DNA from: a virus
Lineage: Duplodnaviria > Heunggongvirae > Uroviricota > Caudoviricetes
IMG/VR virus record: IMGVR_UViG_2537561978_000005
Reading direction: 5' to 3' (one strand)
DNA: 64,000 bases
The notes below the pieces were generated by a model that saw nothing but the letters and a program-made list of their open reading frames with translations, had not been told where the DNA came from and made no database searches. The position numbers and the translations under genes were made by a program. Shown piece after piece: positions 10,439 through 59,784 of this stretch; position 1 is the first letter of the stretch; every line of letters begins with the position of its first letter.

Positions 10439-10467
10439 TTGATCTTCCATGTTTTCAGGCTTATATT
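10439..10467 (+). promoter_or_regulatory. Candidate sigma70 promoter for the immI-like module
   Basis: TTGATC (10439-10444), 17-nt spacer, TATATT (10462-10467). Confidence 0.35.
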
Positions 10468-10599
10468 CATGCCGTCGTAGCAAATTCTGCGACCGGGTTT
10501 GACAGCCTGAATGTTAGTGCGGACAACCGCAGATTTCCGATATTGCGGTATTTTTGTGTCCGTAAACCGCGTTACGCCCGAATTATGGTGGGGCGTGAT

Positions 10600-10690
10600 G
10601 GGGAGGCTTCGGCCTGCTGGTTTCACTAACGCCAGTCTGTCAACCCTGTCACGTCCTGCCACCTGTTTGACAGCGGGTGGCAGGTTGTTA
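10600..10690 (+). ncRNA. Candidate c4-like antisense regulatory RNA
   Basis: Nested inverted repeats (CCTGCCACC 10655-10663 with GGTGGCAGG 10676-10684; CTGTCAA with TTGACAG); TCACTAAC at 10623-10630 is complementary to GTTAGTGA at 10696-10703 covering the SD of the downstream icd-like gene. Confidence 0.3.
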
Positions 10691-11841: not shown

Positions 11842-11850
11842 AGCGTGATG

Positions 11851-11875
11851 CCCCGGCCTGGCCGGGGCTTTTTTC
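11851..11875 (+). terminator. Rho-independent terminator between convergent genes
   Basis: CCCCGGC-ctg-GCCGGGG followed by CTTTTTT. Confidence 0.6.
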
Positions 11876-23780: not shown

Positions 23781-23855
23781 GATGGTGTAGCTCAGCGGTA
23801 GAGCAGTTGGCTGTTAACCAACTGGTCGGTGGTTCGAATCCACCCACCATCGCCA
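23781..23855 (+). tRNA. tRNA-Asn (anticodon GTT)
   Basis: Cloverleaf folds by hand: acceptor GATGGTG/CACCATC, D stem GCTC/GAGC, anticodon loop CTGTTAA, T arm GGTGG-TTCGAAT-CCACC, 3' CCA encoded. Confidence 0.85.
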
Positions 23856-23860
23856 ATTTA

Positions 23861-23947
23861 GGGGAGTTAGTCCGTAGGGGTAGCGGGGTAGACTGTAAAT
23901 CTACTGTCATTGCGACTCGGGTGGTTCGACTCCATCACTCCCCACCA
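23861..23947 (+). tRNA. Type II tRNA-like, probable tRNA-Tyr (anticodon GTA)
   Basis: Acceptor GGGGAGT/ACTCCCC, anticodon arm GTAGA-CTGTAAA-TCTAC, long variable arm, T arm GGTGG-TTCGACT-CCATC, CCA; D arm did not fold cleanly by hand. Confidence 0.5.
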
Positions 23948-23951
23948 AATT

Positions 23952-24027
23952 GCCGGTTTAGCTCAGTTGGTAGAGCAGTCGCTTTGTAAGCGAATGGTCA
24001 GCGGTTCGATCCCGTTAACCGGCACCA
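23952..24027 (+). tRNA. tRNA-Thr (anticodon TGT)
   Basis: Acceptor GCCGGTT/AACCGGC, D arm GCTC-AGTTGGTA-GAGC, anticodon loop TTTGTAA, T loop TTCGATC, CCA. Confidence 0.8.
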
Positions 24028-24481
24028 ACACAACAGGTAAGAGCATTTGTAGAGTTCGACTCTCTACCGTGGGCTTTTTCCCGCGATGCGAGCCATAAAT
24101 GCTCTTACCGTTGTGATGAAGTGCAGCTCTTTGAAGCAACCAGAAGATAAGCATCTGGCTTCACAACATAAACCGCAGGAACGACCAATAAACGGTAGTC
24201 CGTATGGAGAACACCCCGTTGAGGAAGAGGTCTGGCCGGAACCGTAACCGGCACTACAACGTTGAGAACACTGGCGTAACGGGGTCATATCCCAATCTAC
24301 GAATAAATGTTGCGTTGCAGCGTGACAACCAGTGTTCTCAACATTGTGGTGAATGCGCAGGCTGATGCGCGAAAGACATTGCAGCTATTGCGGAAAAGAG
24401 CTGTTCGGCGGGGCAATTAAACGCCCGTGAGAGTCTGAAATAACCGCAAGCCGGAGATCAGCACCGGTCGCCACAATAACG

Positions 24482-24568
24482 GGAGAGTAGGGAGCATGGT
24501 GCTCAAGCGGTCTTGAAAACCGTCCCATTGCGCAAGCGATGATGGTTCGATTCCATTACTCTCCGCCA
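24482..24568 (+). tRNA. Type II tRNA-like, probable tRNA-Ser (anticodon TGA)
   Basis: Acceptor GGAGAGT/ACTCTCC, anticodon arm CGGT-CTTGAAA-ACCG, long variable arm, T arm GATGG-TTCGATT-CCATT, discriminator G, CCA. Confidence 0.5.
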
Positions 24569-24859
24569 GTGCAACATTAAGGGTATTTGGCTAATTAAGC
24601 GAATGCCGGAAGCAGAACCGGATCACCAAATGCGTACAGGCGTCATCGCCGCCCAGTCAGCCAAATGCTCTTACCATTGCGGTGAATGCGGCTAAGCGCA
24701 CGCGGAACAGTTAAAACAGTAAAGGTGGTCTTTTTACTGGCGTAACGAGAATCCATAAGTGATCCGGCGTTAATTGTTAACTGGTTAACGTCACCGGGAG
24801 GCGCCCGGCACCGCAACCTAACAGCAATGGCGTTTTGTCTTAAAAGGTGGCTGCAAGTG

Positions 24860-24988
24860 ATGGATTTTTGGGCGTTTGCCGATAAAAACCCGGAGTGGAC
24901 ATTATTGTTTCTGCTGGTGGTTGCATACGGGGTAGAGCAAGCGGCAAAAGCCTTACGCGGTTCTGGCAAAAAGCGTAAGCGTAATTAA
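24860..24988 (+). CDS. Small hydrophobic peptide (42 aa), hypothetical
   Basis: ATG 24860 preceded by AAGGTGG at 9 nt; MDFWAFADKNPEWTLLFLLVVAYGVEQAAKALRGSGKKRKRN; below the ORF-track size cutoff. Confidence 0.3.
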   Translation: MDFWAFADKNPEWTLLFLLVVAYGVEQAAKALRGSGKKRKRN

Positions 24989-24997
24989 CAGTAATCT

Positions 24998-25073
24998 GGC
25001 CCTTTAGCTCAGTGGTTAGAGCGGGCGACTCATAATCGCACGGTCACCGGTTCAAGTCCGGTAGGGGCCACCA
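24998..25073 (+). tRNA. tRNA-Ile2-type (anticodon CAT, lysidine-type; formally also readable as Met)
   Basis: GGCCCTTTAGCTCAGTGGTTAGAGCGGGCGACTCATAATCGC...GGTTCAAGTCCGGTAGGGGCCACCA closely resembles E. coli ileX from memory. Confidence 0.8.
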
Positions 25074-49149: not shown

Positions 49150-49253
49150 AATACTGACTGTTGCGCCCTGGCATTATCGTGGGGTATATTTCTACGGCAC
49201 CTTAGAAAAACGGGTGCCGGGATTGAGACCCCGGATAATGCAAAAGGCGACAC

Positions 49254-49276
49254 AGACGCCGAAAGCGTCTTTTTTT
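49254..49276 (+). terminator. Rho-independent terminator
   Basis: AGACGC-cgaaa-GCGTCT followed by TTTTTT. Confidence 0.65.
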
Positions 49277-49324
49277 GTGTCATGCCATCGCACAGCCATA
49301 CGTAGCGTATAGCTCCAAGATCAA

Positions 49325-49400
49325 TGGTAGTGCTGGCTGGGCTGCCGAAAGGCAGGCCGGTTCCCTTTTGCGCCGGTAGTCTCAACCCAGCCAGTGCTAC
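49325..49400 (+). ncRNA. Candidate c4-like antisense regulatory RNA (second specificity)
   Basis: Perfect 16-bp inverted repeat GGTAGTGCTGGCTGGG / CCCAGCCAGTGCTACC enclosing CTGCC-GAAA-GGCAG hairpin; CCCTTTTGC (49362-49370) is complementary to GCAAAAGG (49442-49449) at the SD of the downstream icd-like gene. Confidence 0.35.
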
Positions 49401-49461
49401 CGCCATTGAGATTGAGACCTCACGCGGTAGCTCCTTAAATTAGCAAAAGGAGGCTGCCAAT

Positions 49462-51595: not shown

Positions 51596-52668
51596 TGCTT
51601 GCATTTACACAACTTACATTAGTTCGAAATAAGCTAAGGGAGATATCAGAATCTCCCTATTTTTCTAAAGACATGCATGAATATCTTGCTGTTCTACAAG
51701 AAGCGGTAGATAAGCTCTATGAAAACCATGTGAATGTTGCTGATAAAATAATTGCGGATTGTACTTTTTTTATCACCGATGCAGTTAATTTTTTCACTGG
51801 CAGTACTACAAAGAAAATTCCCTACGAGATTGTTTATTGCTTAAATGATGCCTGTAAAAAATGGATAAGTGAAAAAACACTTATAACCACAGCCCTATCT
51901 CCAGATATGCATGGGTTTTATTTTAAGTCTGTAAACAAGAATTTGTATTCTTTATTTGATGAAGTTTTAAATGTCAAATTCGAGGTCGAATTAATTCAGA
52001 TTTCATTACCTGAAATGTACAGAAGACGACCATTATGCTCTATACCTTTATATCACGAATTGGGACATTTCGTTGATATTAGCAAAGGTATTTCTGAGCT
52101 TGCCTGTCTTAACTATCGTTCCAAGGACAAAGGCACACTTCCAGGACCAGAATGGAGTAATCTACCTGATGTTATTTGGATAAATCATTGCAGAGAATAT
52201 TTTGCAGATCTATTTAGTGCCCAATTTATTGGAAAAAGTGGGGTAGATTTCTTATACAAATTAGCTGGCTCTCATCCTGCAAGCTATACTCACCCATCCA
52301 CAGAAGATAGAGTTAAAATTGTAAGCGACTTTTTGAACAAAGTGGAAAATCCAGTTGTTGGCATGTTCAATGCTGTGATATCAGCCTTACATAAGGGTGG
52401 GCAGATTATTTCTCCTTGTTTGACATTGCCGACACCTTTGCTTGATGTGAAATCAGCTTTTGATAATGTGCGTCCTTTTGTTATTCGCGACCACAATGAA
52501 ATGCATGCTTTTATTAACAGCAGCTGGCAGTACTTATGCTCTGAATGGGAAAAACCTACGGGTATATGGTCTGGGTTGTCAAAAGAAGCCATAGAAAAAA
52601 CTATAAATGATTTGGTTGAAAAATCGATTCGAAACGTAATGATTCTTGAAAAATGGAGTGCACAATGA
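51595..52668 (+). CDS. ImmA/IrrE-like (M78-type) HExxH zinc-metallopeptidase-domain protein
   Basis: 357 aa; PLYHELGHFVD followed about 40 residues later by HCREYFADLFSAQF, matching the HExxH...E..FA..LL arrangement of M78 peptidases; about 35% GC. Confidence 0.5.
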   Translation: MLAFTQLTLVRNKLREISESPYFSKDMHEYLAVLQEAVDKLYENHVNVADKIIADCTFFITDAVNFFTGSTTKKIPYEIVYCLNDACKKWISEKTLITTALSPDMHGFYFKSVNKNLYSLFDEVLNVKFEVELIQISLPEMYRRRPLCSIPLYHELGHFVDISKGISELACLNYRSKDKGTLPGPEWSNLPDVIWINHCREYFADLFSAQFIGKSGVDFLYKLAGSHPASYTHPSTEDRVKIVSDFLNKVENPVVGMFNAVISALHKGGQIISPCLTLPTPLLDVKSAFDNVRPFVIRDHNEMHAFINSSWQYLCSEWEKPTGIWSGLSKEAIEKTINDLVEKSIRNVMILEKWSAQ

Positions 52669-53282
52669 ATCTCCTAAGCAAAGCTGAATTGCTGCAATAT
52701 TATGAATCAGAAGAACCTGAGTCGTTGTTCATTGAACCTCTTCTAAATAAAAACCAAATTGGAAACTTCACCATAGACCTTAGACTTGGTTACGATTTTT
52801 TAGTGTCTATTATGACAAGGAAGCCGTCAATAGAGTTAATTCCCTCAAAAAACAATGATACTCATCAACCAATCAGAACATTTTTCCAGGAAACAAGGAG
52901 AGATCTTGGGGATAGGTTCATTGTTTACCCGAATCAAGTGGTACTGGCAACAACATTAGAATATGTTTGTTTGCCACCAGATTGCTACGCTGATGTATTG
53001 TCCAGAAGCAGCTATACAAGGCTTGGTCTTTCATTAAATACCATGATACAACCAGGGTACAGAGGCTGTATATCTTTAGAGTTATTTAATCATGGGAATA
53101 GCCCTGTAGAACTTATTGTTGGATCTCGCATATGTCAAATTCGTATATTCAAGAATGAAACTGTCGGTGAATACATAAGTCATGAGTCTCACAGGAAATA
53201 TTTCGGAAATGTGAGGCCAACCGTCTCAGCAGCAGAAAGTGATAATGAATTAAATATGCTGGAAAAGATCCGACAAAAATGA
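52653..53282 (+). CDS. dCTP deaminase-family (dUTPase superfamily) enzyme
   Basis: 209 aa; IDLRLGYDF, LATTLEYVCLP, SRSSYTRLGLSLNT, GYRGCISLELFNHGNSPVEL, RICQIRIF align with E. coli Dcd core blocks from memory; 16-nt overlap with upstream gene. Confidence 0.55.
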   Translation: MECTMNLLSKAELLQYYESEEPESLFIEPLLNKNQIGNFTIDLRLGYDFLVSIMTRKPSIELIPSKNNDTHQPIRTFFQETRRDLGDRFIVYPNQVVLATTLEYVCLPPDCYADVLSRSSYTRLGLSLNTMIQPGYRGCISLELFNHGNSPVELIVGSRICQIRIFKNETVGEYISHESHRKYFGNVRPTVSAAESDNELNMLEKIRQK

Positions 53283-53370
53283 AGACTTTAATGCTTTATA
53301 TTATAAAAACATACAGCGACAACGCAGCCACCAAGATGTGTTGTCGCCATGTTCAAAGTGCTAACACAGT

Positions 53371-53763
53371 TTAAAAATCACCTGCGCGCTGTTTTTCAAG
53401 CACAGATTTAACATTTGGCACTTTCCCTTTAAAAGAATGGAAAGTGCCACATTTTTCTGTTTTAACTTCGCGCAGAGCTTCGCCATCGGCGTTCTGCCAT
53501 TGATGGGATAATGTCATATCACCGCGAGAAGGAACATCCAGCGAGTACAGCGTGTAAGTTCCCCCCATCTCCGCATACTCCTGGAACACATAGCTCATTA
53601 CGTCAGATTCAGTTTTTCGGTGTACGTTATCAACCTTATTCCCATTCAGAAATATGGCATCTGGATAGATTTTTATATCAAACCGACCGCACTTAACTTG
53701 TAAATTTCCGGCGCTCGCGATCAAAGGGAAAGACGCCAGTAAAGCAATTGTCAATCTTTTCAA
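53371..53763 (-). CDS. Secreted hypothetical protein
   Basis: 130 aa, signal peptide MKRLTIALLASFPLIASA, TTG start after GGAGG. Confidence 0.5.
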   Translation of the reverse strand: MKRLTIALLASFPLIASAGNLQVKCGRFDIKIYPDAIFLNGNKVDNVHRKTESDVMSYVFQEYAEMGGTYTLYSLDVPSRGDMTLSHQWQNADGEALREVKTEKCGTFHSFKGKVPNVKSVLEKQRAGDF

Positions 53764-53783
53764 TTCTGCCTCCGCTGCGTAAC

Positions 53784-54407
53784 TTATTGCCCGTATTTTT
53801 TACACCATTGCTCTGCCATTTGTTTGGCTAAAGGCCCGGCTACTGCACTGTATTCTGCTGTTTTACTTTGCACACATGAAGCAGATGGTTTTTTATTTCG
53901 CTGCTCGGTTAGTTTGCGCTCATAAGCCATCATGCTATCGAACCCGGCAATATCACTTTGGCGAAGCATTCCCTTTTTAACCAAAAATTGCTGCCCCTCG
54001 GGCACCAACGCAAGCATAAAAAGTGGTTGCAATAACTCACCTAATCCTTGCTGGCGATACACTTCGAATTGCTGCCATCCCTGACTTAATCTGGAAAGAG
54101 TATCTTTGGTTGAATAACCTGTTTTTGTTATAGCTTTGTCCGTCAGATATGCTGTATATGCAAAAACGCAAAAGTCAGTTTTACCAATAAACTGAGTTCC
54201 AACAGGCCGTAATGGAATGCCCTCCCTCTTGCAAAAGTCCATAATGGCCGCTTGTGAATGATCCCCACCAGCATTATTCATAACCTGCTGCCCTGCCCTG
54301 AATTGTGCAGGTAACGCAGTTGCATTGGCAGTATTAGCAGATACGCATCCCAACATAGCCGCGAGCGCGGCCCCTAAAACCCTTAACTTCACTACACCAT
54401 CCTTCAT
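53784..54407 (-). CDS. Putative lipoprotein
   Basis: 207 aa, lipobox LGC after hydrophobic h-region (VLGAALAAMLGCVS). Confidence 0.55.
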   Translation of the reverse strand: MKDGVVKLRVLGAALAAMLGCVSANTANATALPAQFRAGQQVMNNAGGDHSQAAIMDFCKREGIPLRPVGTQFIGKTDFCVFAYTAYLTDKAITKTGYSTKDTLSRLSQGWQQFEVYRQQGLGELLQPLFMLALVPEGQQFLVKKGMLRQSDIAGFDSMMAYERKLTEQRNKKPSASCVQSKTAEYSAVAGPLAKQMAEQWCKKYGQ

Positions 54408-54623
54408 GTAAACAAAATGAAGTTTTATGTTATAAAAACAATTAACTACATCAACATGATTTAGGCCAAATTTCGGTCAAAAAATAAAATCCACAAAAAG
54501 TGGTTGACACTATTTTGGAAATCACAAACTGCACATAATCCATCGCGCTAACGGCTCCCGTTGAAGGTTCTTTTGACGATTAACTTTCAGCCGAAGCGCG
54601 GTAGGGAGTCATAACGCCAAAGC

Positions 54624-54649
54624 AGGCCGCCATGTGCGGCCTTTTTTTG
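54624..54649 (+). terminator. Rho-independent terminator immediately upstream of a gene start
   Basis: AGGCCGC-catgt-GCGGCCT followed by TTTTTTT; ends 27 nt before ATG 54676. Confidence 0.6.
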
Positions 54650-54675
54650 TATCCGTCATCCGTGGAGGAAGGAAA

Positions 54676-55329
54676 ATGGAAAAGATCGCAATATTCAGCC
54701 TGACCACCAGCAAGCCTCAAATGCTCACTGCAATACTGAAAGACGGTGCTCTCATTATTAACGAAGTAAAACCCCTTCCCGCGTCAGCATTGGAGCAAAA
54801 GCAAAAAATTCCTCCAGCTATAGCAGCCCTGCGGAAAAGCAAATTTAAGGTTCTAGTAGACGAAATTACGCCAACGATCTCCGCTGGCACCGGAGCAAGC
54901 CAGGTGACTCTCAAGACCCGTCATGCCGATGGTAGAGCAGCAATCATCGTTGGGATGGAAAGATACAGAGAGTTAAAACTCCAGAAACTATTATCCCTGC
55001 CGCAAAATAACAAAGGTGCTTTCGAAATCCCCGACTCTATCGTTGATACCGAATACAACGGTAACGGAGAAGAAGTCTACAGGGTGAACTGGCAGGATAT
55101 CAGGCCGGAGCATATTTTGATGATCCTGTGTTGCTACGCGACCGTATACCACAACGTTGCCAGTGCAGATTATGTAGAGCAGATGACCGGTACAGTCGAG
55201 AAAGAGCAAAAAACAGGCATACTCGCTTCGTTCCTGTCCATTATTGGGCATGAAAAAGTTAAAGCAGGCACCTCCCAGCCAAAGTCACTGGCTGGGAAAG
55301 AAGTTGATGAAGATACCGTGATACTTTGA
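54676..55329 (+). CDS. Hypothetical protein
   Basis: 217 aa from ATG after GGAGGAAGG (track start 54634 would span the terminator). Confidence 0.55.
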   Translation: MEKIAIFSLTTSKPQMLTAILKDGALIINEVKPLPASALEQKQKIPPAIAALRKSKFKVLVDEITPTISAGTGASQVTLKTRHADGRAAIIVGMERYRELKLQKLLSLPQNNKGAFEIPDSIVDTEYNGNGEEVYRVNWQDIRPEHILMILCCYATVYHNVASADYVEQMTGTVEKEQKTGILASFLSIIGHEKVKAGTSQPKSLAGKEVDEDTVIL

Positions 55330-55657
55330 TCACATTAGTAGCTTTGTTAACTCCCTCAATACCAGGTAGAAGAGTAACAAAAATATTGACGCGAGTATTT
55401 GAGTGGTCAATGAAGCGTTCATAAACAGATCAATTAGCATTAATAATTCGAATATAACATCCATGTCATTCACTCCGTTTAATTTTTAATCTAATGCCAG
55501 CAAATGAAGCTGGCCCCCGCACAAAGATTAATGAAAGTCACTTGTCACCAGTGAGGGGATTTATGAACCACATCCCCCTGAACTGGTGGCCTGTCTGTTT
55601 CTCACATTTCACACCCTGCATACAGTTTCCCCCAGGTTATGACTGAGAGGCTTTGTT

Positions 55658-55987
55658 ATGGGCTATAGCAGACTCGACGACAGGTACATTGAAGACGATA
55701 TTTTTCGTGCGCTGTTTCACCAGGAAATGATTAAGCGGGTATCGGAGTATCACTCTGATAATTTCCAGTACACGATAAAGATTGATGAAGTATATCGTTC
55801 AGACCTTGCAGCCTACCGGGCGTATGGCAATGCAGATTTGCGCTGGGTATTCCGGGTGCTGGTGGGCCATGAGTCAGAAATGGAAGAAATGCCCGCCGGG
55901 ACCACGTTAACTCTTCCTGATGTGGCATGGCTGAGGAACAAGATCCGTGATTACGCGAGCGCGGAACCGGAGATAGAAAATGCCTGA
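55658..55987 (+). CDS. Hypothetical protein
   Basis: 109 aa, RBS GAGAGG; overlaps next gene by 8 nt. Confidence 0.5.
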   Translation: MGYSRLDDRYIEDDIFRALFHQEMIKRVSEYHSDNFQYTIKIDEVYRSDLAAYRAYGNADLRWVFRVLVGHESEMEEMPAGTTLTLPDVAWLRNKIRDYASAEPEIENA

Positions 55988-57173
55988 TTTCCTGAAAAAC
56001 CAGGACGGGCGCTATATCACTGACGGCCTGTCCTCTAAGGACTTCACGCGTTTATTCGACCTTATCAGGAAAGAACAAACCCGTAAGCGCCGACAAGCTC
56101 ACCGGACGCTGACGCCAGGTAGACTGAGGAACAAATCCGCCGAAGATATTCTCAAGTTAGGGAAGAAAAAAGGCGGCACGTTCTTCACGCGAGACGACCT
56201 GAAAGGTTTCGAAAAGCTACGGAGTAAAACACGCGAAAAATATGACAGCAAGACGGCTGGCATCACATACGCCCAGCTGGTGGCATCCAGCCAGGCAATC
56301 GATATTAAGCGTGCAAATAACGCCGTGGATGACGGATCTGGTATCAAAAGAGCTACACCCGTATCTCTTCGCCACAACGTGATTAATATCCGCGTAGAAG
56401 CATCGGATATATCCGTCCACCAGCACCATATCGTCCGGATACGCTTTGAAGAATGGGATCAGATGGTTGATGACATCGCAGAAGACGATAAATCAGCTCT
56501 GAAAATCACTAAATCACTGTGCGCCGGGCGAGTGTCTTTCGATTGTGACTGTGGTCGTCATCAATACTGGTATCGTTACATCGCTACTGCGGGTAACTTT
56601 GCCCTGGCCCCGCCAAAAGAATACGCCTATCCAAAAGTTCGTAACCCTAAGCTACAAGGCGTCGCCTGTAAACACGTGATCCACTCAATGACGCGGTTAC
56701 AGTCCGCAAGTTGGCAAATGAGTATTGCTCGTGCACTACAAAAGGCTGCAACGCAAATTGCATTTGGTGACGATCGCCGACGTACAACCAAACACTTCTC
56801 AAAAGAAGACGAGAAGGAGTTTAATCGCAATCGTAGCAGTAAAACGAACGTTGAAGCCGCCAAACGCGAATGGAGACTCTATCAGAAGCGCCAGGCAGCT
56901 TTAAGTACAAAACTGGCAAAGGACAACGGCAAGATCGACAAACTACGTGACCAATTGACCAAGGCCAGAAAGTTGTCAGATGCACAGAAAAAACGGGCGG
57001 CAGCAAAAGAAGCGGCCTTGCAACGTGAGAAACAGAAAAACAAGGAGCTTCAGCAACGCCTTGCCGATCAGTTCGCACTGAAGAAGCAGGCGTTCATTGA
57101 TGCGCTTGTCATGGCTGGAACACCACCAGCACAAGCTGAAAAAATGTTCATGGAGTATGTAAAAAAAGCATAA
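55980..57173 (+). CDS. SWIM-type zinc-finger protein with basic coiled-coil C-terminus
   Basis: FDCDCGRHQYWY...LQGVACKHVIHS fits CxCxnCxH; 397 aa. Confidence 0.5.
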   Translation: MPDFLKNQDGRYITDGLSSKDFTRLFDLIRKEQTRKRRQAHRTLTPGRLRNKSAEDILKLGKKKGGTFFTRDDLKGFEKLRSKTREKYDSKTAGITYAQLVASSQAIDIKRANNAVDDGSGIKRATPVSLRHNVINIRVEASDISVHQHHIVRIRFEEWDQMVDDIAEDDKSALKITKSLCAGRVSFDCDCGRHQYWYRYIATAGNFALAPPKEYAYPKVRNPKLQGVACKHVIHSMTRLQSASWQMSIARALQKAATQIAFGDDRRRTTKHFSKEDEKEFNRNRSSKTNVEAAKREWRLYQKRQAALSTKLAKDNGKIDKLRDQLTKARKLSDAQKKRAAAKEAALQREKQKNKELQQRLADQFALKKQAFIDALVMAGTPPAQAEKMFMEYVKKA

Positions 57174-57183
57174 ACCACACATA

Positions 57184-57201
57184 GCCTAGCTGCCTAGGCT
57201 A
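57184..57201. terminator. Hairpin between convergent genes
   Basis: AGCCTAG-ctgc-CTAGGCT. Confidence 0.4.
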
Positions 57202-57206
57202 GGCTT

Positions 57207-57935
57207 TCATCTTTTTGAAAAATCAATTTCCGTTTTATCAAATAAATTTGAAATATCAGCAACCAATTTATTAAAATCATGATCGCCATTATAAAGCGAA
57301 GTCTTCTTTATTGCCATTACAAAATCATATAACTTTTCTGGGGAGTCAATACCAACCCCTCTACTTTTAAAAAGCTCAATGATAACTCCAACATCATCAT
57401 ATAATAATTTTATTGCCGCCATAATCTCTTTTTGCTGCCTAAGCAATCTCTCAAGTTCATTTTTATTTTCATCCATAATTCTTTTGTTGAATTGTGTATC
57501 ATTAATACTTTTTATTATTTCAGTCTCTTTTATTTGCAACGCCTTTCTTTTATTTTGATCCATGTCGGCATCCAAATACCTTATCTCTGTATATATTTTA
57601 CTTGTTAGCTTTGATACGCAAAGAGTGACAATCGGAGCTGCAATTGATGCAATAATTCCAAAAATAAATGGCAAGCAAAAATGATAAAACCAAGGAGACA
57701 AAACGCCTTCATAAACTAGAGGAATCTTACCTCCAACAAATGTTACAGATAAAGTATATAGGATATCATCCTTTGACTTCATCAATATTAGTATATCTTT
57801 CCAATTAATAATTAGAAAAGAAATGAATATATATGCAAACACTTTATTAAAAAGCTTGTCTTTTATGGCATCTCCAAAAGATACTTTGATTAGATCATTT
57901 TCAGTCAATTTTTCTGTTGATGAATCTGTATTCAT
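57207..57935 (-). CDS. AT-rich membrane protein, candidate abortive-infection-type effector
   Basis: 242 aa, about 29% GC; two TM helices then Lys/Glu-rich coiled coil. Confidence 0.55.
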   Translation of the reverse strand: MNTDSSTEKLTENDLIKVSFGDAIKDKLFNKVFAYIFISFLIINWKDILILMKSKDDILYTLSVTFVGGKIPLVYEGVLSPWFYHFCLPFIFGIIASIAAPIVTLCVSKLTSKIYTEIRYLDADMDQNKRKALQIKETEIIKSINDTQFNKRIMDENKNELERLLRQQKEIMAAIKLLYDDVGVIIELFKSRGVGIDSPEKLYDFVMAIKKTSLYNGDHDFNKLVADISNLFDKTEIDFSKR

Positions 57936-58076
57936 ATAAACTACCGTGATTTCTAATATCTATTTTATGAAAATTCATTTCCGGTTCGTTATCGAACATC
58001 GGTTCGACCGCACGCAGTGCGGCCTCATAATCTTGTTCTGTACGGATAGATTTAATGTTCATTAATTACAAAGGAA

Positions 58077-58830: not shown

Positions 58831-58992
58831 TAGTCATTTGATCCTCCGTGATGATTACCGAATGCCATAACTATAGCGCACCGTTGCACTGTGCGCAAGT
58901 GCATTTTATGAATTCCCCCTCCTTCATCCAAAATCACAATCTCCAGAAAATCTTCCTTTCGATACCTGACAGATCGACCTTTGAGGATGCTT

Positions 58993-59784
58993 ATGGGCCG
59001 TTTTGACGAATGGTTTGCTGACGATGCAAACCTGGCAAGTAAGGAGTCAGAACATGACAGCACGCAGAGAGAAACGCCAGCGCCGATTGAAGCGAATGCA
59101 GGAGGCGCGCCGGAACATGGCAATACCGGTTCGGATTCATTCAGCATTCTGGAAGAGCAACCCGCCGCCAAAGCTGATAGCCATGATAATTTTGCTGATA
59201 GCAACGGTGGCCTTACTCCGGATGCTGGCGAATCAGATATAGCCATACTTCCATCTTCCCTGGCTGGCAGAGAACCGACTCCACAGTTAAAAGCACGCTA
59301 TAACGGGCATAAAGCCTTTAACGACCAAATCCGCGCAGACTGGATGCTGATTATTGAATCCAGCCCAGACGCGTTTCAGGCTCTCTTATATCGACCAGAT
59401 GTTGGCACATATGGGGTAGTCAGCGACGAAACAGGAGAAGAGTCATTCACCGAACTGGATAACAACCAACGCGAACTGACTTACCAGGAACCTGAAATCG
59501 TTTATGTGCTGGATAACCCTGACGGGCGTGACTCTTTCCATGCGATTGACGCAGACGGTGAGCAGGATGGCTTAACCGATGATGTTCTGATTCTGCGTAT
59601 TGCAGCAAATAACGTCCCCGTCGGCTCAATTCTTGAATGGAATGAAGAGATGGTAAACGGCGTAGCGCGCCGCTGGTGGTACGTGCACCGTATTTTTAGC
59701 TACGGCACACAGCATGTTGGTTCGCTTTACTACTGCATACCTGCCAGGAATTTTGATACGACTCAAAACGGAGTGATCGAATGA
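58993..59784 (+). CDS. Hypothetical protein (acidic N-terminal half), possible virion component
   Basis: ATG 58993 after SD GAGGA (track start 58981 is TTG); coupled to next gene. Confidence 0.5.
   Translation: MGRFDEWFADDANLASKESEHDSTQRETPAPIEANAGGAPEHGNTGSDSFSILEEQPAAKADSHDNFADSNGGLTPDAGESDIAILPSSLAGREPTPQLKARYNGHKAFNDQIRADWMLIIESSPDAFQALLYRPDVGTYGVVSDETGEESFTELDNNQRELTYQEPEIVYVLDNPDGRDSFHAIDADGEQDGLTDDVLILRIAANNVPVGSILEWNEEMVNGVARRWWYVHRIFSYGTQHVGSLYYCIPARNFDTTQNGVIE

Follow-up and report, generated by a model that had tools for sequence, protein, structure and literature searches.

A conserved, structured leader RNA closed by an intrinsic terminator in front of the phage-plasmid gene mat: a probable promoter-proximal attenuator

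A hairpin located immediately in front of the mat gene of a D6-like phage-plasmid appears to be the intrinsic terminator closing a conserved, structured 5' leader of that gene, and is probably (we would put the likelihood at roughly 60%) a promoter-proximal attenuator that limits or gates mat expression. The window in which it lies (the whole stretch of DNA analysed, 64,000 nucleotides) is assigned on sequence grounds to a D6-like phage-plasmid, a relative of phage P1. In the spacer that holds the hairpin and in its flanks, identity is 100% to E. coli plasmid NZ_CP117014 and 96% to phage D6. The two C4 antisense RNAs and several tRNAs that Rfam models detect in the window are in keeping with a relative of P1. 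One C4 RNA gene has an a1/b1 target element upstream (10461-10513, 10581-10666; region 10461-10666) and a complete RNA of the isrK family stands before the other (49197-49275, 49320-49407); the window thus seems to carry two immI-like antirepressor control regions. Five tRNA genes are clustered at 23781-25073 (Asn-GTT, Tyr-GTA, Thr-TGT, Ser-TGA and Met-CAT).

The mat locus comprises the following features (positions in the window):

53371-53763 and 53784-54407, minus strand: upstream neighbour ORFs (ORF list)
54504-54509, plus strand: TTGACA, -35-like hexamer that marks where the conserved mat module begins on the left (homology edge)
54520-54530, plus strand: AATCACAAACT box, 3-4 nt upstream of the -10 (conserved in D6-type relatives)
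54534-54539, plus strand: CATAAT, -10 hexamer (sequence reading)
54545-54559, plus strand: helix P1, 5' strand, GCG.UA..GGCUCCC (MFE fold, covariation)
54562-54589, plus strand: hairpin P2, UGAAGGUU/AACUUUCA (covariation)
54570-54581, plus strand: conserved loop of P2, CUUUUGACGAUU
54590-54602, plus strand: hairpin P3, GCCG-AAGCG-CGGU, containing the near-invariant GCGCGG
54604-54617, plus strand: helix P1, 3' strand, GGGAGUC.UA.CGC (MFE fold, covariation)
54618-54623, plus strand: A-rich single-stranded linker, CAAAGC
54624-54648, plus strand: intrinsic terminator (7-bp stem, 5-nt loop, U7 tract)
54664-54672, plus strand: mat Shine-Dalgarno, GGAGGAAGG (sequence reading)
54676-55329, plus strand: mat, maturation control protein, 217 aa, with its ATG at 54676-54678

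The gene at 54676 is annotated in D6 as "maturation of virion, similar to P1 gene mat", and its product shares 99.5% identity with D6 Mat and 33% with P1 Mat. Its minus-strand neighbour is annotated in D6 as "similar to P1 simB", on the strand opposite to mat, and the adjacent upstream gene is also on the opposite strand at the D6-type loci with an annotated neighbour (D6, L002, L003, L005 and L007). As the earlier note had pointed out, no plus-strand gene precedes the hairpin, both neighbours being on the minus strand. The spacer contains no conserved ORF. According to the P1 literature, Mat is the product of an essential morphogenesis gene and has a terminase-nuclease-like fold (PMC10695390). 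We find the fold of Mat to be terminase-nuclease/RuvC-like, and a role as an RNA-binding antiterminator was rejected on account of this fold and of a match to the NusG sequence that is not significant (E 0.53).

The mat stop codon overlaps the start of the next gene in many lineages, and homologues of the P1 baseplate/tail genes 26 and 25 follow (loci with this mat-26-25 arrangement are found among L093-L097, L101 and L102). As mat is directly joined to 26 and 25 in these many lineages, a terminator in its leader would control entry into a mat-26-25 operon there. In the window, mat and gene 26 are kept apart by an insert of 330 bp. Further downstream, a palindromic terminator-like hairpin (57182-57205), scored on both strands and probably a bidirectional terminator, lies between the gene-25 homologue (ending at 57173) and a convergent minus-strand ORF (57207-57935).

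The hairpin in front of mat is formed by A54624-GGCCGC, the loop CATGT and GCGGCC-T54642, that is, seven Watson-Crick pairs of which six are G-C; seven T residues occupy 54642-54648 (the first of them pairing with A54624) and are followed by G54649. The earlier note's description of a strong, GC-rich 7-bp terminator with a T7 run, ending 27 nt before the ATG at 54676, holds for the coordinates as well as for the distance. In a consensus scan, the hairpin ranks first of 15 terminator-like sites in 52000-58000. A stricter scan (seven perfect pairs, at least six of them G-C, a loop of 3-8, and at least six T in the next eight positions) of both strands of the whole 64-kb window left just two, at 11850 and 54624 (with three overlapping matches), against an expectation of 0.03 per window (maximum 1) in 60 dinucleotide shuffles. 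The other site, the only equally strong terminator, is at 11850-11868 on the plus strand (GCCCCGGCC-T-GGCCGGGGC followed by T6). Of 15 lineages inspected one by one, whose Mat identities range from 27 to 100%, 14 have a terminator before mat, and its two basal pairs change between AU, GU and GC among lineages. To judge from its sequence, the hairpin is a real and strong intrinsic terminator, and the 3' end of a short RNA is predicted in the region of 54648. The 27 nt separating it from the ATG are variable and poorly conserved among relatives and contain no -10-like hexamer; there would therefore be no room for a promoter of mat's own downstream of the terminator.

Promoter-like region, RNA of ~100 nt (about 54545-54648) and terminator read as one unit. 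When 54545-54649 is folded from the predicted 5' end, the MFE structure (-38.1 kcal/mol) is a three-way junction followed by a 6-nt linker and the terminator. The earlier note had proposed either a small RNA transcribed from 54408-54620 or a regulated leader; a predicted structured RNA with a terminator is what emerges, restricted to about 54545-54648, the 5' half of the spacer being a separate module that is swapped among relatives. No leader-peptide ORF was found, as there is no ATG in 54545-54631 and the lone plus-strand ORF starts in the terminator loop, which varies in relatives. Neither the window region nor the P1 leader gave a relevant match to a known RNA family of Rfam 15, at gathering threshold or at E values up to 10, and no riboswitch aptamer family was matched in either. 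ARAGORN identified no tRNA or tmRNA in the spacer region, the C4 model (RF01695) had no match in the region, the isrK model (RF01394) reached 14.7 bits (gathering threshold 50) from the terminator only, and 54540-54650 contains no tandem direct repeats.

An alternative structure (fold A, CCAUCGCGCU/AGCGCGGUAGG plus CGGCU/AGCCG) is the MFE fold when folding begins at 54540, and was rejected, its 5' strand lying largely upstream of the predicted transcription start. It pairs in 82% of cells, with lineage L005 providing the single compensatory event, and in most lineages the junction is the more stable of the two. Fold A is the MFE structure only in the D6 clade with extra 5' bases, and leaves the terminator uninvolved. 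As modelled, fold A is a possible minor conformer of the D6 clade.

To follow the leader among relatives, mat loci were taken from viral and genome contigs, plus contigs encoding Mat homologues 27-76% identical to the window protein, and a covariance model (R1) was built from nine D6-type leaders with the junction structure. R1 finds one copy in the window (54540-54649, 125.8 bits) and no further copies before other late operons of the window. It also recovers L095, L096 and L097, which are outside its training set, at E about 1e-9, and subsequently recovered the Pantoea-type lineage too. Over 17 distinct sequences, 85.6% of cells pair (32-52% in slid controls), 17 of the 33 pairs have changes on both sides, and none of 500 shuffles reaches any of five covariation measures, the alignment behind these values having been fitted to the model, a procedure somewhat favourable to the structure. 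Both-side changes affect 9/14 pairs in helix P1 and 5/8 pairs in hairpin P2. Clear swaps of several pairs at once can moreover be read directly in the sequences, both in P2 (AGA/UCU vs GAU/AUC in L096 and L103) and in helix P1 (GGCUCCC/GGGAGUC vs GGUUUCC/GGAGAC). Hardly any variation is seen in the P2 loop and the GCGCGG block even at Mat identities of 35-50% (L045, L096 and L097 in the case of the loop). A 9-mer of the P2 loop (TTTTGACGA) recurs at 59001-59009, just inside the gene-7 tail homologue (about 0.5 occurrences expected by chance).

A degenerate pattern combining the P2 loop, GCGYG and GCCGC occurs at 54 places in the viral contigs, one being a chance match in a coding region and the other 53 being leaders. 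The mat gene starts about 100 nt after the motif in all of these 53 with enough downstream sequence, and no free-standing, mat-less copy was seen among them. The earlier note had offered a leader and a small RNA as alternatives; a unit always directly upstream of mat fits that proposal, the two not being mutually exclusive, and the lack of mat-less copies goes against a free-standing small RNA gene. All loci fetched via Mat homologues carry the leader except L098 (Enterobacter soli), in which the order is terminator, promoter, mat. The leader is therefore not obligatory for mat, and, L098 having the ordinary order, that of D6 and P1 is a distinct arrangement. On the strength of its covariation and constant position, the element falls in the general class of conserved, structured cis-regulatory leader RNAs. 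The D6-type leader has matches in 121 plasmid records and in plasmids of 101 of 5,426 complete E. coli genomes.

The conserved module has a sharp left border. The left part of the spacer (54408-54503) is common to close relatives only and is replaced in some plasmids, and the module break in relatives falls exactly at TTGACA (54504), where homology starts in H90, H91, L007 and L009; the alignment with an Enterobacter plasmid is limited to 54522-54653. TTGACA is kept at D6-type and P1-type loci. The 24-nt gap between it and CATAAT is too long, so that an ordinary sigma-70 promoter does not fit. The position of the AATCACAAACT box matches the '-22 region' of the P1 late promoter LPmat (P1 GenBank annotation), where the -22 box is 4 nt before the LPmat -10, and the box is presumably an activator site. 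The -10 is kept as CAWAAT/CAATAC in relatives, and transcription would start at about 54545-54547.

In its sequence, the AATCACAAACT box differs from the P1 -22 box (AAGTGACTT), and clean copies of it are few. A second exact AATCACAAWCT-N4-AWAAT is found at 58932, with the gene-7 tail homologue (ATG 58994) starting 43 nt further on, and the box string with at most three mismatches has 10 matches in the window (3.0 +/- 1.65 expected). The promoter class is uncertain because AATCACAAWCT has two perfect copies only, several weaker matches are intragenic, and an exact P1-type AAGTGACTT is located elsewhere. That exact P1-type -22 box is at 55525-55543 on the minus strand, between mat and the gene-26 homologue; TAATCT follows 4 nt later, and the box points at a small hydrophobic ORF (55473-55330) and, in antisense orientation, into the 3' end of mat. 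Another candidate for the spacer, the P1-type late-promoter box AAGTNACTT, does not occur in it and shows no enrichment over the window. A regulator may bind at 54459-54481, where an 11-nt sequence is directly repeated (ATTTAGGCCAA / ATTTCGGTCAA) in the region of divergent promoters that separates the simB-like gene from the mat promoter.

The mat region of phage P1 is the orthologous locus, and has promoter elements, three-way junction, terminator and mat as in the window. The leaders of P1 and of L068, L100, L101 and L102 (the P1-type loci comprise P1, P7-like, SJ46-like and others) have the same topology as the D6-type leaders and are unrelated to them in sequence. There is no similarity between the two types by blastn, and R1 misses the P1 leader; with homology undetected by the covariance model, only a shared topology is claimed. 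Reading downstream, P1-type loci have promoter elements, a long outer stem around two hairpins, then a linker and a strong terminator, with the Mat ATG following within about 15-25 nt. In the P1 annotation (AF234172), Omat, Pmat and LPmat are just upstream of the leader, and the region includes a C1 operator and, as its -22 box, AAGTGACTT, whereas the window has the AATCACAAACT box. About 125 nt separate the promoter elements from mat in P1, a stretch whose predicted structure is a three-way junction and an 8-bp terminator (AAGCCGCC/GGUGGCUU) with a U tract, ending about 15 nt before ATG 2827. The first hairpin loop of P1-type leaders, CYCUUUUCAAAY, is the equivalent of the P2 loop. Their outer stem covaries (GGUAC/GUACC in P1, GGUGC/GCACC in L068, GGCGC/GCGCC in L100), with an unrelated stem in L101/L102.

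The P1 record annotates the leader stretch as the N-terminus of Mat and not as RNA. The deposited mat CDS (L008, AF234172) starts at 2716 and is translated through the junction and terminator of the leader (2716-2826). Three observations, namely the alignment with D6-type Mat, the 213-aa NCBI models and the stop upstream of the GTG-54634 frame in the D6-type leader, indicate that the true start of P1 mat is 2827.

If the terminator is a promoter-proximal attenuator, an activator-type promoter (TTGACA, AATCACAAACT box, CATAAT) would start transcription at about 54545, and the nascent RNA would fold into the three-way junction formed by P1, P2 and P3. Most polymerases would then stop at the U7 terminator, releasing the ~100-nt RNA, and read-through polymerases alone would make mat mRNA, in many relatives along with genes 26 and 25. 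Expression of mat would probably depend on read-through of the terminator; the termination efficiency, the need for read-through and any read-through factor are what we infer from this arrangement. A plain attenuator needs no conserved junction of 80 nt, so something more would be going on. Since such a junction exceeds the needs of termination, we infer either the binding of a factor (affecting read-through or stability) or a role of its own for the short RNA. Most likely, the junction and P2 loop would be a recognition platform for a factor modulating read-through, or the short RNA would have its own function.

The riboswitch-like version of the leader suggested in the earlier note, with alternative terminator and antiterminator structures, was not borne out, there being no conserved competing helix and no aptamer match. 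When the leader was folded for antiterminator alternatives, as had been proposed, forbidding the terminator was found to cost 9-17 kcal/mol in all 17 distinct leaders, and truncated nascent transcripts of these leaders have no conserved pairing of the 5' strand of the terminator. Without a competing helix, regulation, if any, would not be that of a classical RNA switch and would need a factor. Occlusion of the mat Shine-Dalgarno in read-through RNA, in the manner of IsrK, follows no consistent pattern.

The ~100-nt terminated RNA could itself be the main product, a trans-acting riboregulator, possibly bound by Hfq or ProQ, with read-through into mat being secondary. Its targets would be mRNAs of the phage or the host, or else the longer isoform of itself made by read-through, as for the short IsrK RNA of Gifsy-1, and a short, leader-terminated phage RNA acting on a long isoform does provide a precedent (PMC4825925). 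The U7-tailed terminator, the A-rich linker and a loop (CUUUUGACGAUU, or CYCUUUUCAAAY in P1-type leaders) more conserved than termination requires are consistent with this, as is the conservation of the leader where Mat identity drops to 35-50%. However, no copy without mat was found among the 53 genuine ones, complements of the P2 loop are at chance level in the window (9 vs 7.8 expected), read-through transcripts show no consistent sequestration of the mat Shine-Dalgarno, and the isrK score (14.7 bits vs a gathering threshold of 50) comes from the terminator only; we regard a riboregulator as main product as a tentative possibility. We think it rather unlikely that the junction is the recognition RNA of a second, post-initiation tier of late control in P1/D6-type phage-plasmids, either as a put/nut-like element or binding site for a factor, permitting read-through into mat (in many lineages into mat-26-25), or as an RNA partner of the terminase-nuclease-like Mat. 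By analogy with the stoichiometry of type III toxin-antitoxin (TA) systems, such a partner would be made in excess over Mat by virtue of the terminator.

The hairpin could also be a plain insulator blocking stray plus-strand transcription from upstream, the structure before it being incidental or merely stabilising the RNA. Phage P1 does have a same-strand gene, ref, upstream of mat, and the terminator of L098 separates ref from the mat promoter. However, the adjacent upstream gene is on the opposite strand in the window and in D6, L002, L003, L005 and L007, the terminator is downstream, not upstream, of the conserved promoter elements, and insulation has no need for the covariation and sequence conservation of the leader, all of which makes an insulator quite improbable. 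A chance hairpin devoid of function is hardly credible at all: only 0.03 such sites are expected per window, and its conservation before mat in 14/15 lineages effectively refutes this idea.

Attenuation of mat by a promoter-proximal terminator would have parallels in other phages. In the PR'-tR' unit of lambda (6S RNA), a strong intrinsic terminator lies no more than about 100-200 nt beyond a late promoter, and the morphogenesis genes need read-through, which is provided by the Q protein engaged at the qut site of the promoter. The mat leader resembles this unit in its proposed short default RNA and in the morphogenesis genes downstream that would be reached by read-through; a conserved three-way junction, in contrast, is not part of the lambda unit. 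Late control of the P1 type relies on the activator Lpa and not on antitermination. In phage HK022, the put element consists of two stem-loops acting on the polymerase without protein factors. Like put, the mat leader is a folded nascent RNA between a phage promoter and a terminator, the two having no sequence or Rfam similarity.

Type III TA systems (ToxIN-like) have a promoter, a structured non-coding RNA, an intrinsic terminator and a nuclease-type gene, their antitoxin RNAs being tandem repeats. This gene order is like that of the mat locus, but the mat leader has no tandem repeats, and Mat is a terminase-nuclease-like morphogenesis protein and not a ToxN-type RNase (PMC10695390). Classical attenuators and riboswitch platforms likewise have an intrinsic terminator in a 5' leader just before the regulated ORF; the mat leader differs from them in having no leader peptide, no conserved antiterminator and no Rfam riboswitch match. 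At the IsrK locus of Gifsy-1, one promoter gives rise to a short terminated RNA and to a read-through mRNA, with the terminator setting their ratio (PMC4825925). IsrK and the mat leader are both phage-borne, and the mat leader would likewise combine a short terminated RNA with read-through, but they belong to different RNA families, and we see no evidence in the mat leader of an inactive long isoform or of pairing in trans as in IsrK.

The P1 literature surveyed, which covers the transcriptome (RNA-seq), Hfq and CRISPRi but neither of the P1 and D6 genome papers, makes no mention of a small RNA or a leader at mat. We thus found no description of this structured, terminator-ended 5' leader without an Rfam family, an earlier one being possible. 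P1 is a model phage, and phage-plasmids of the P1 and D6 types are widespread in Enterobacteriaceae. The present analysis corrects the P1 mat gene model, as far as the indicated start is concerned, and defines an RNA motif absent from Rfam that is directly testable by P1 genetics. If the junction did prove to be a post-initiation recognition RNA, it would represent a new class of phage riboregulator, hidden in P1 inside an over-extended CDS annotation. Late control in P1 has been described as promoter activation by Lpa, to which a terminator-ended mat leader would add a checkpoint at the level of elongation or RNA on a morphogenesis protein with a nuclease fold.
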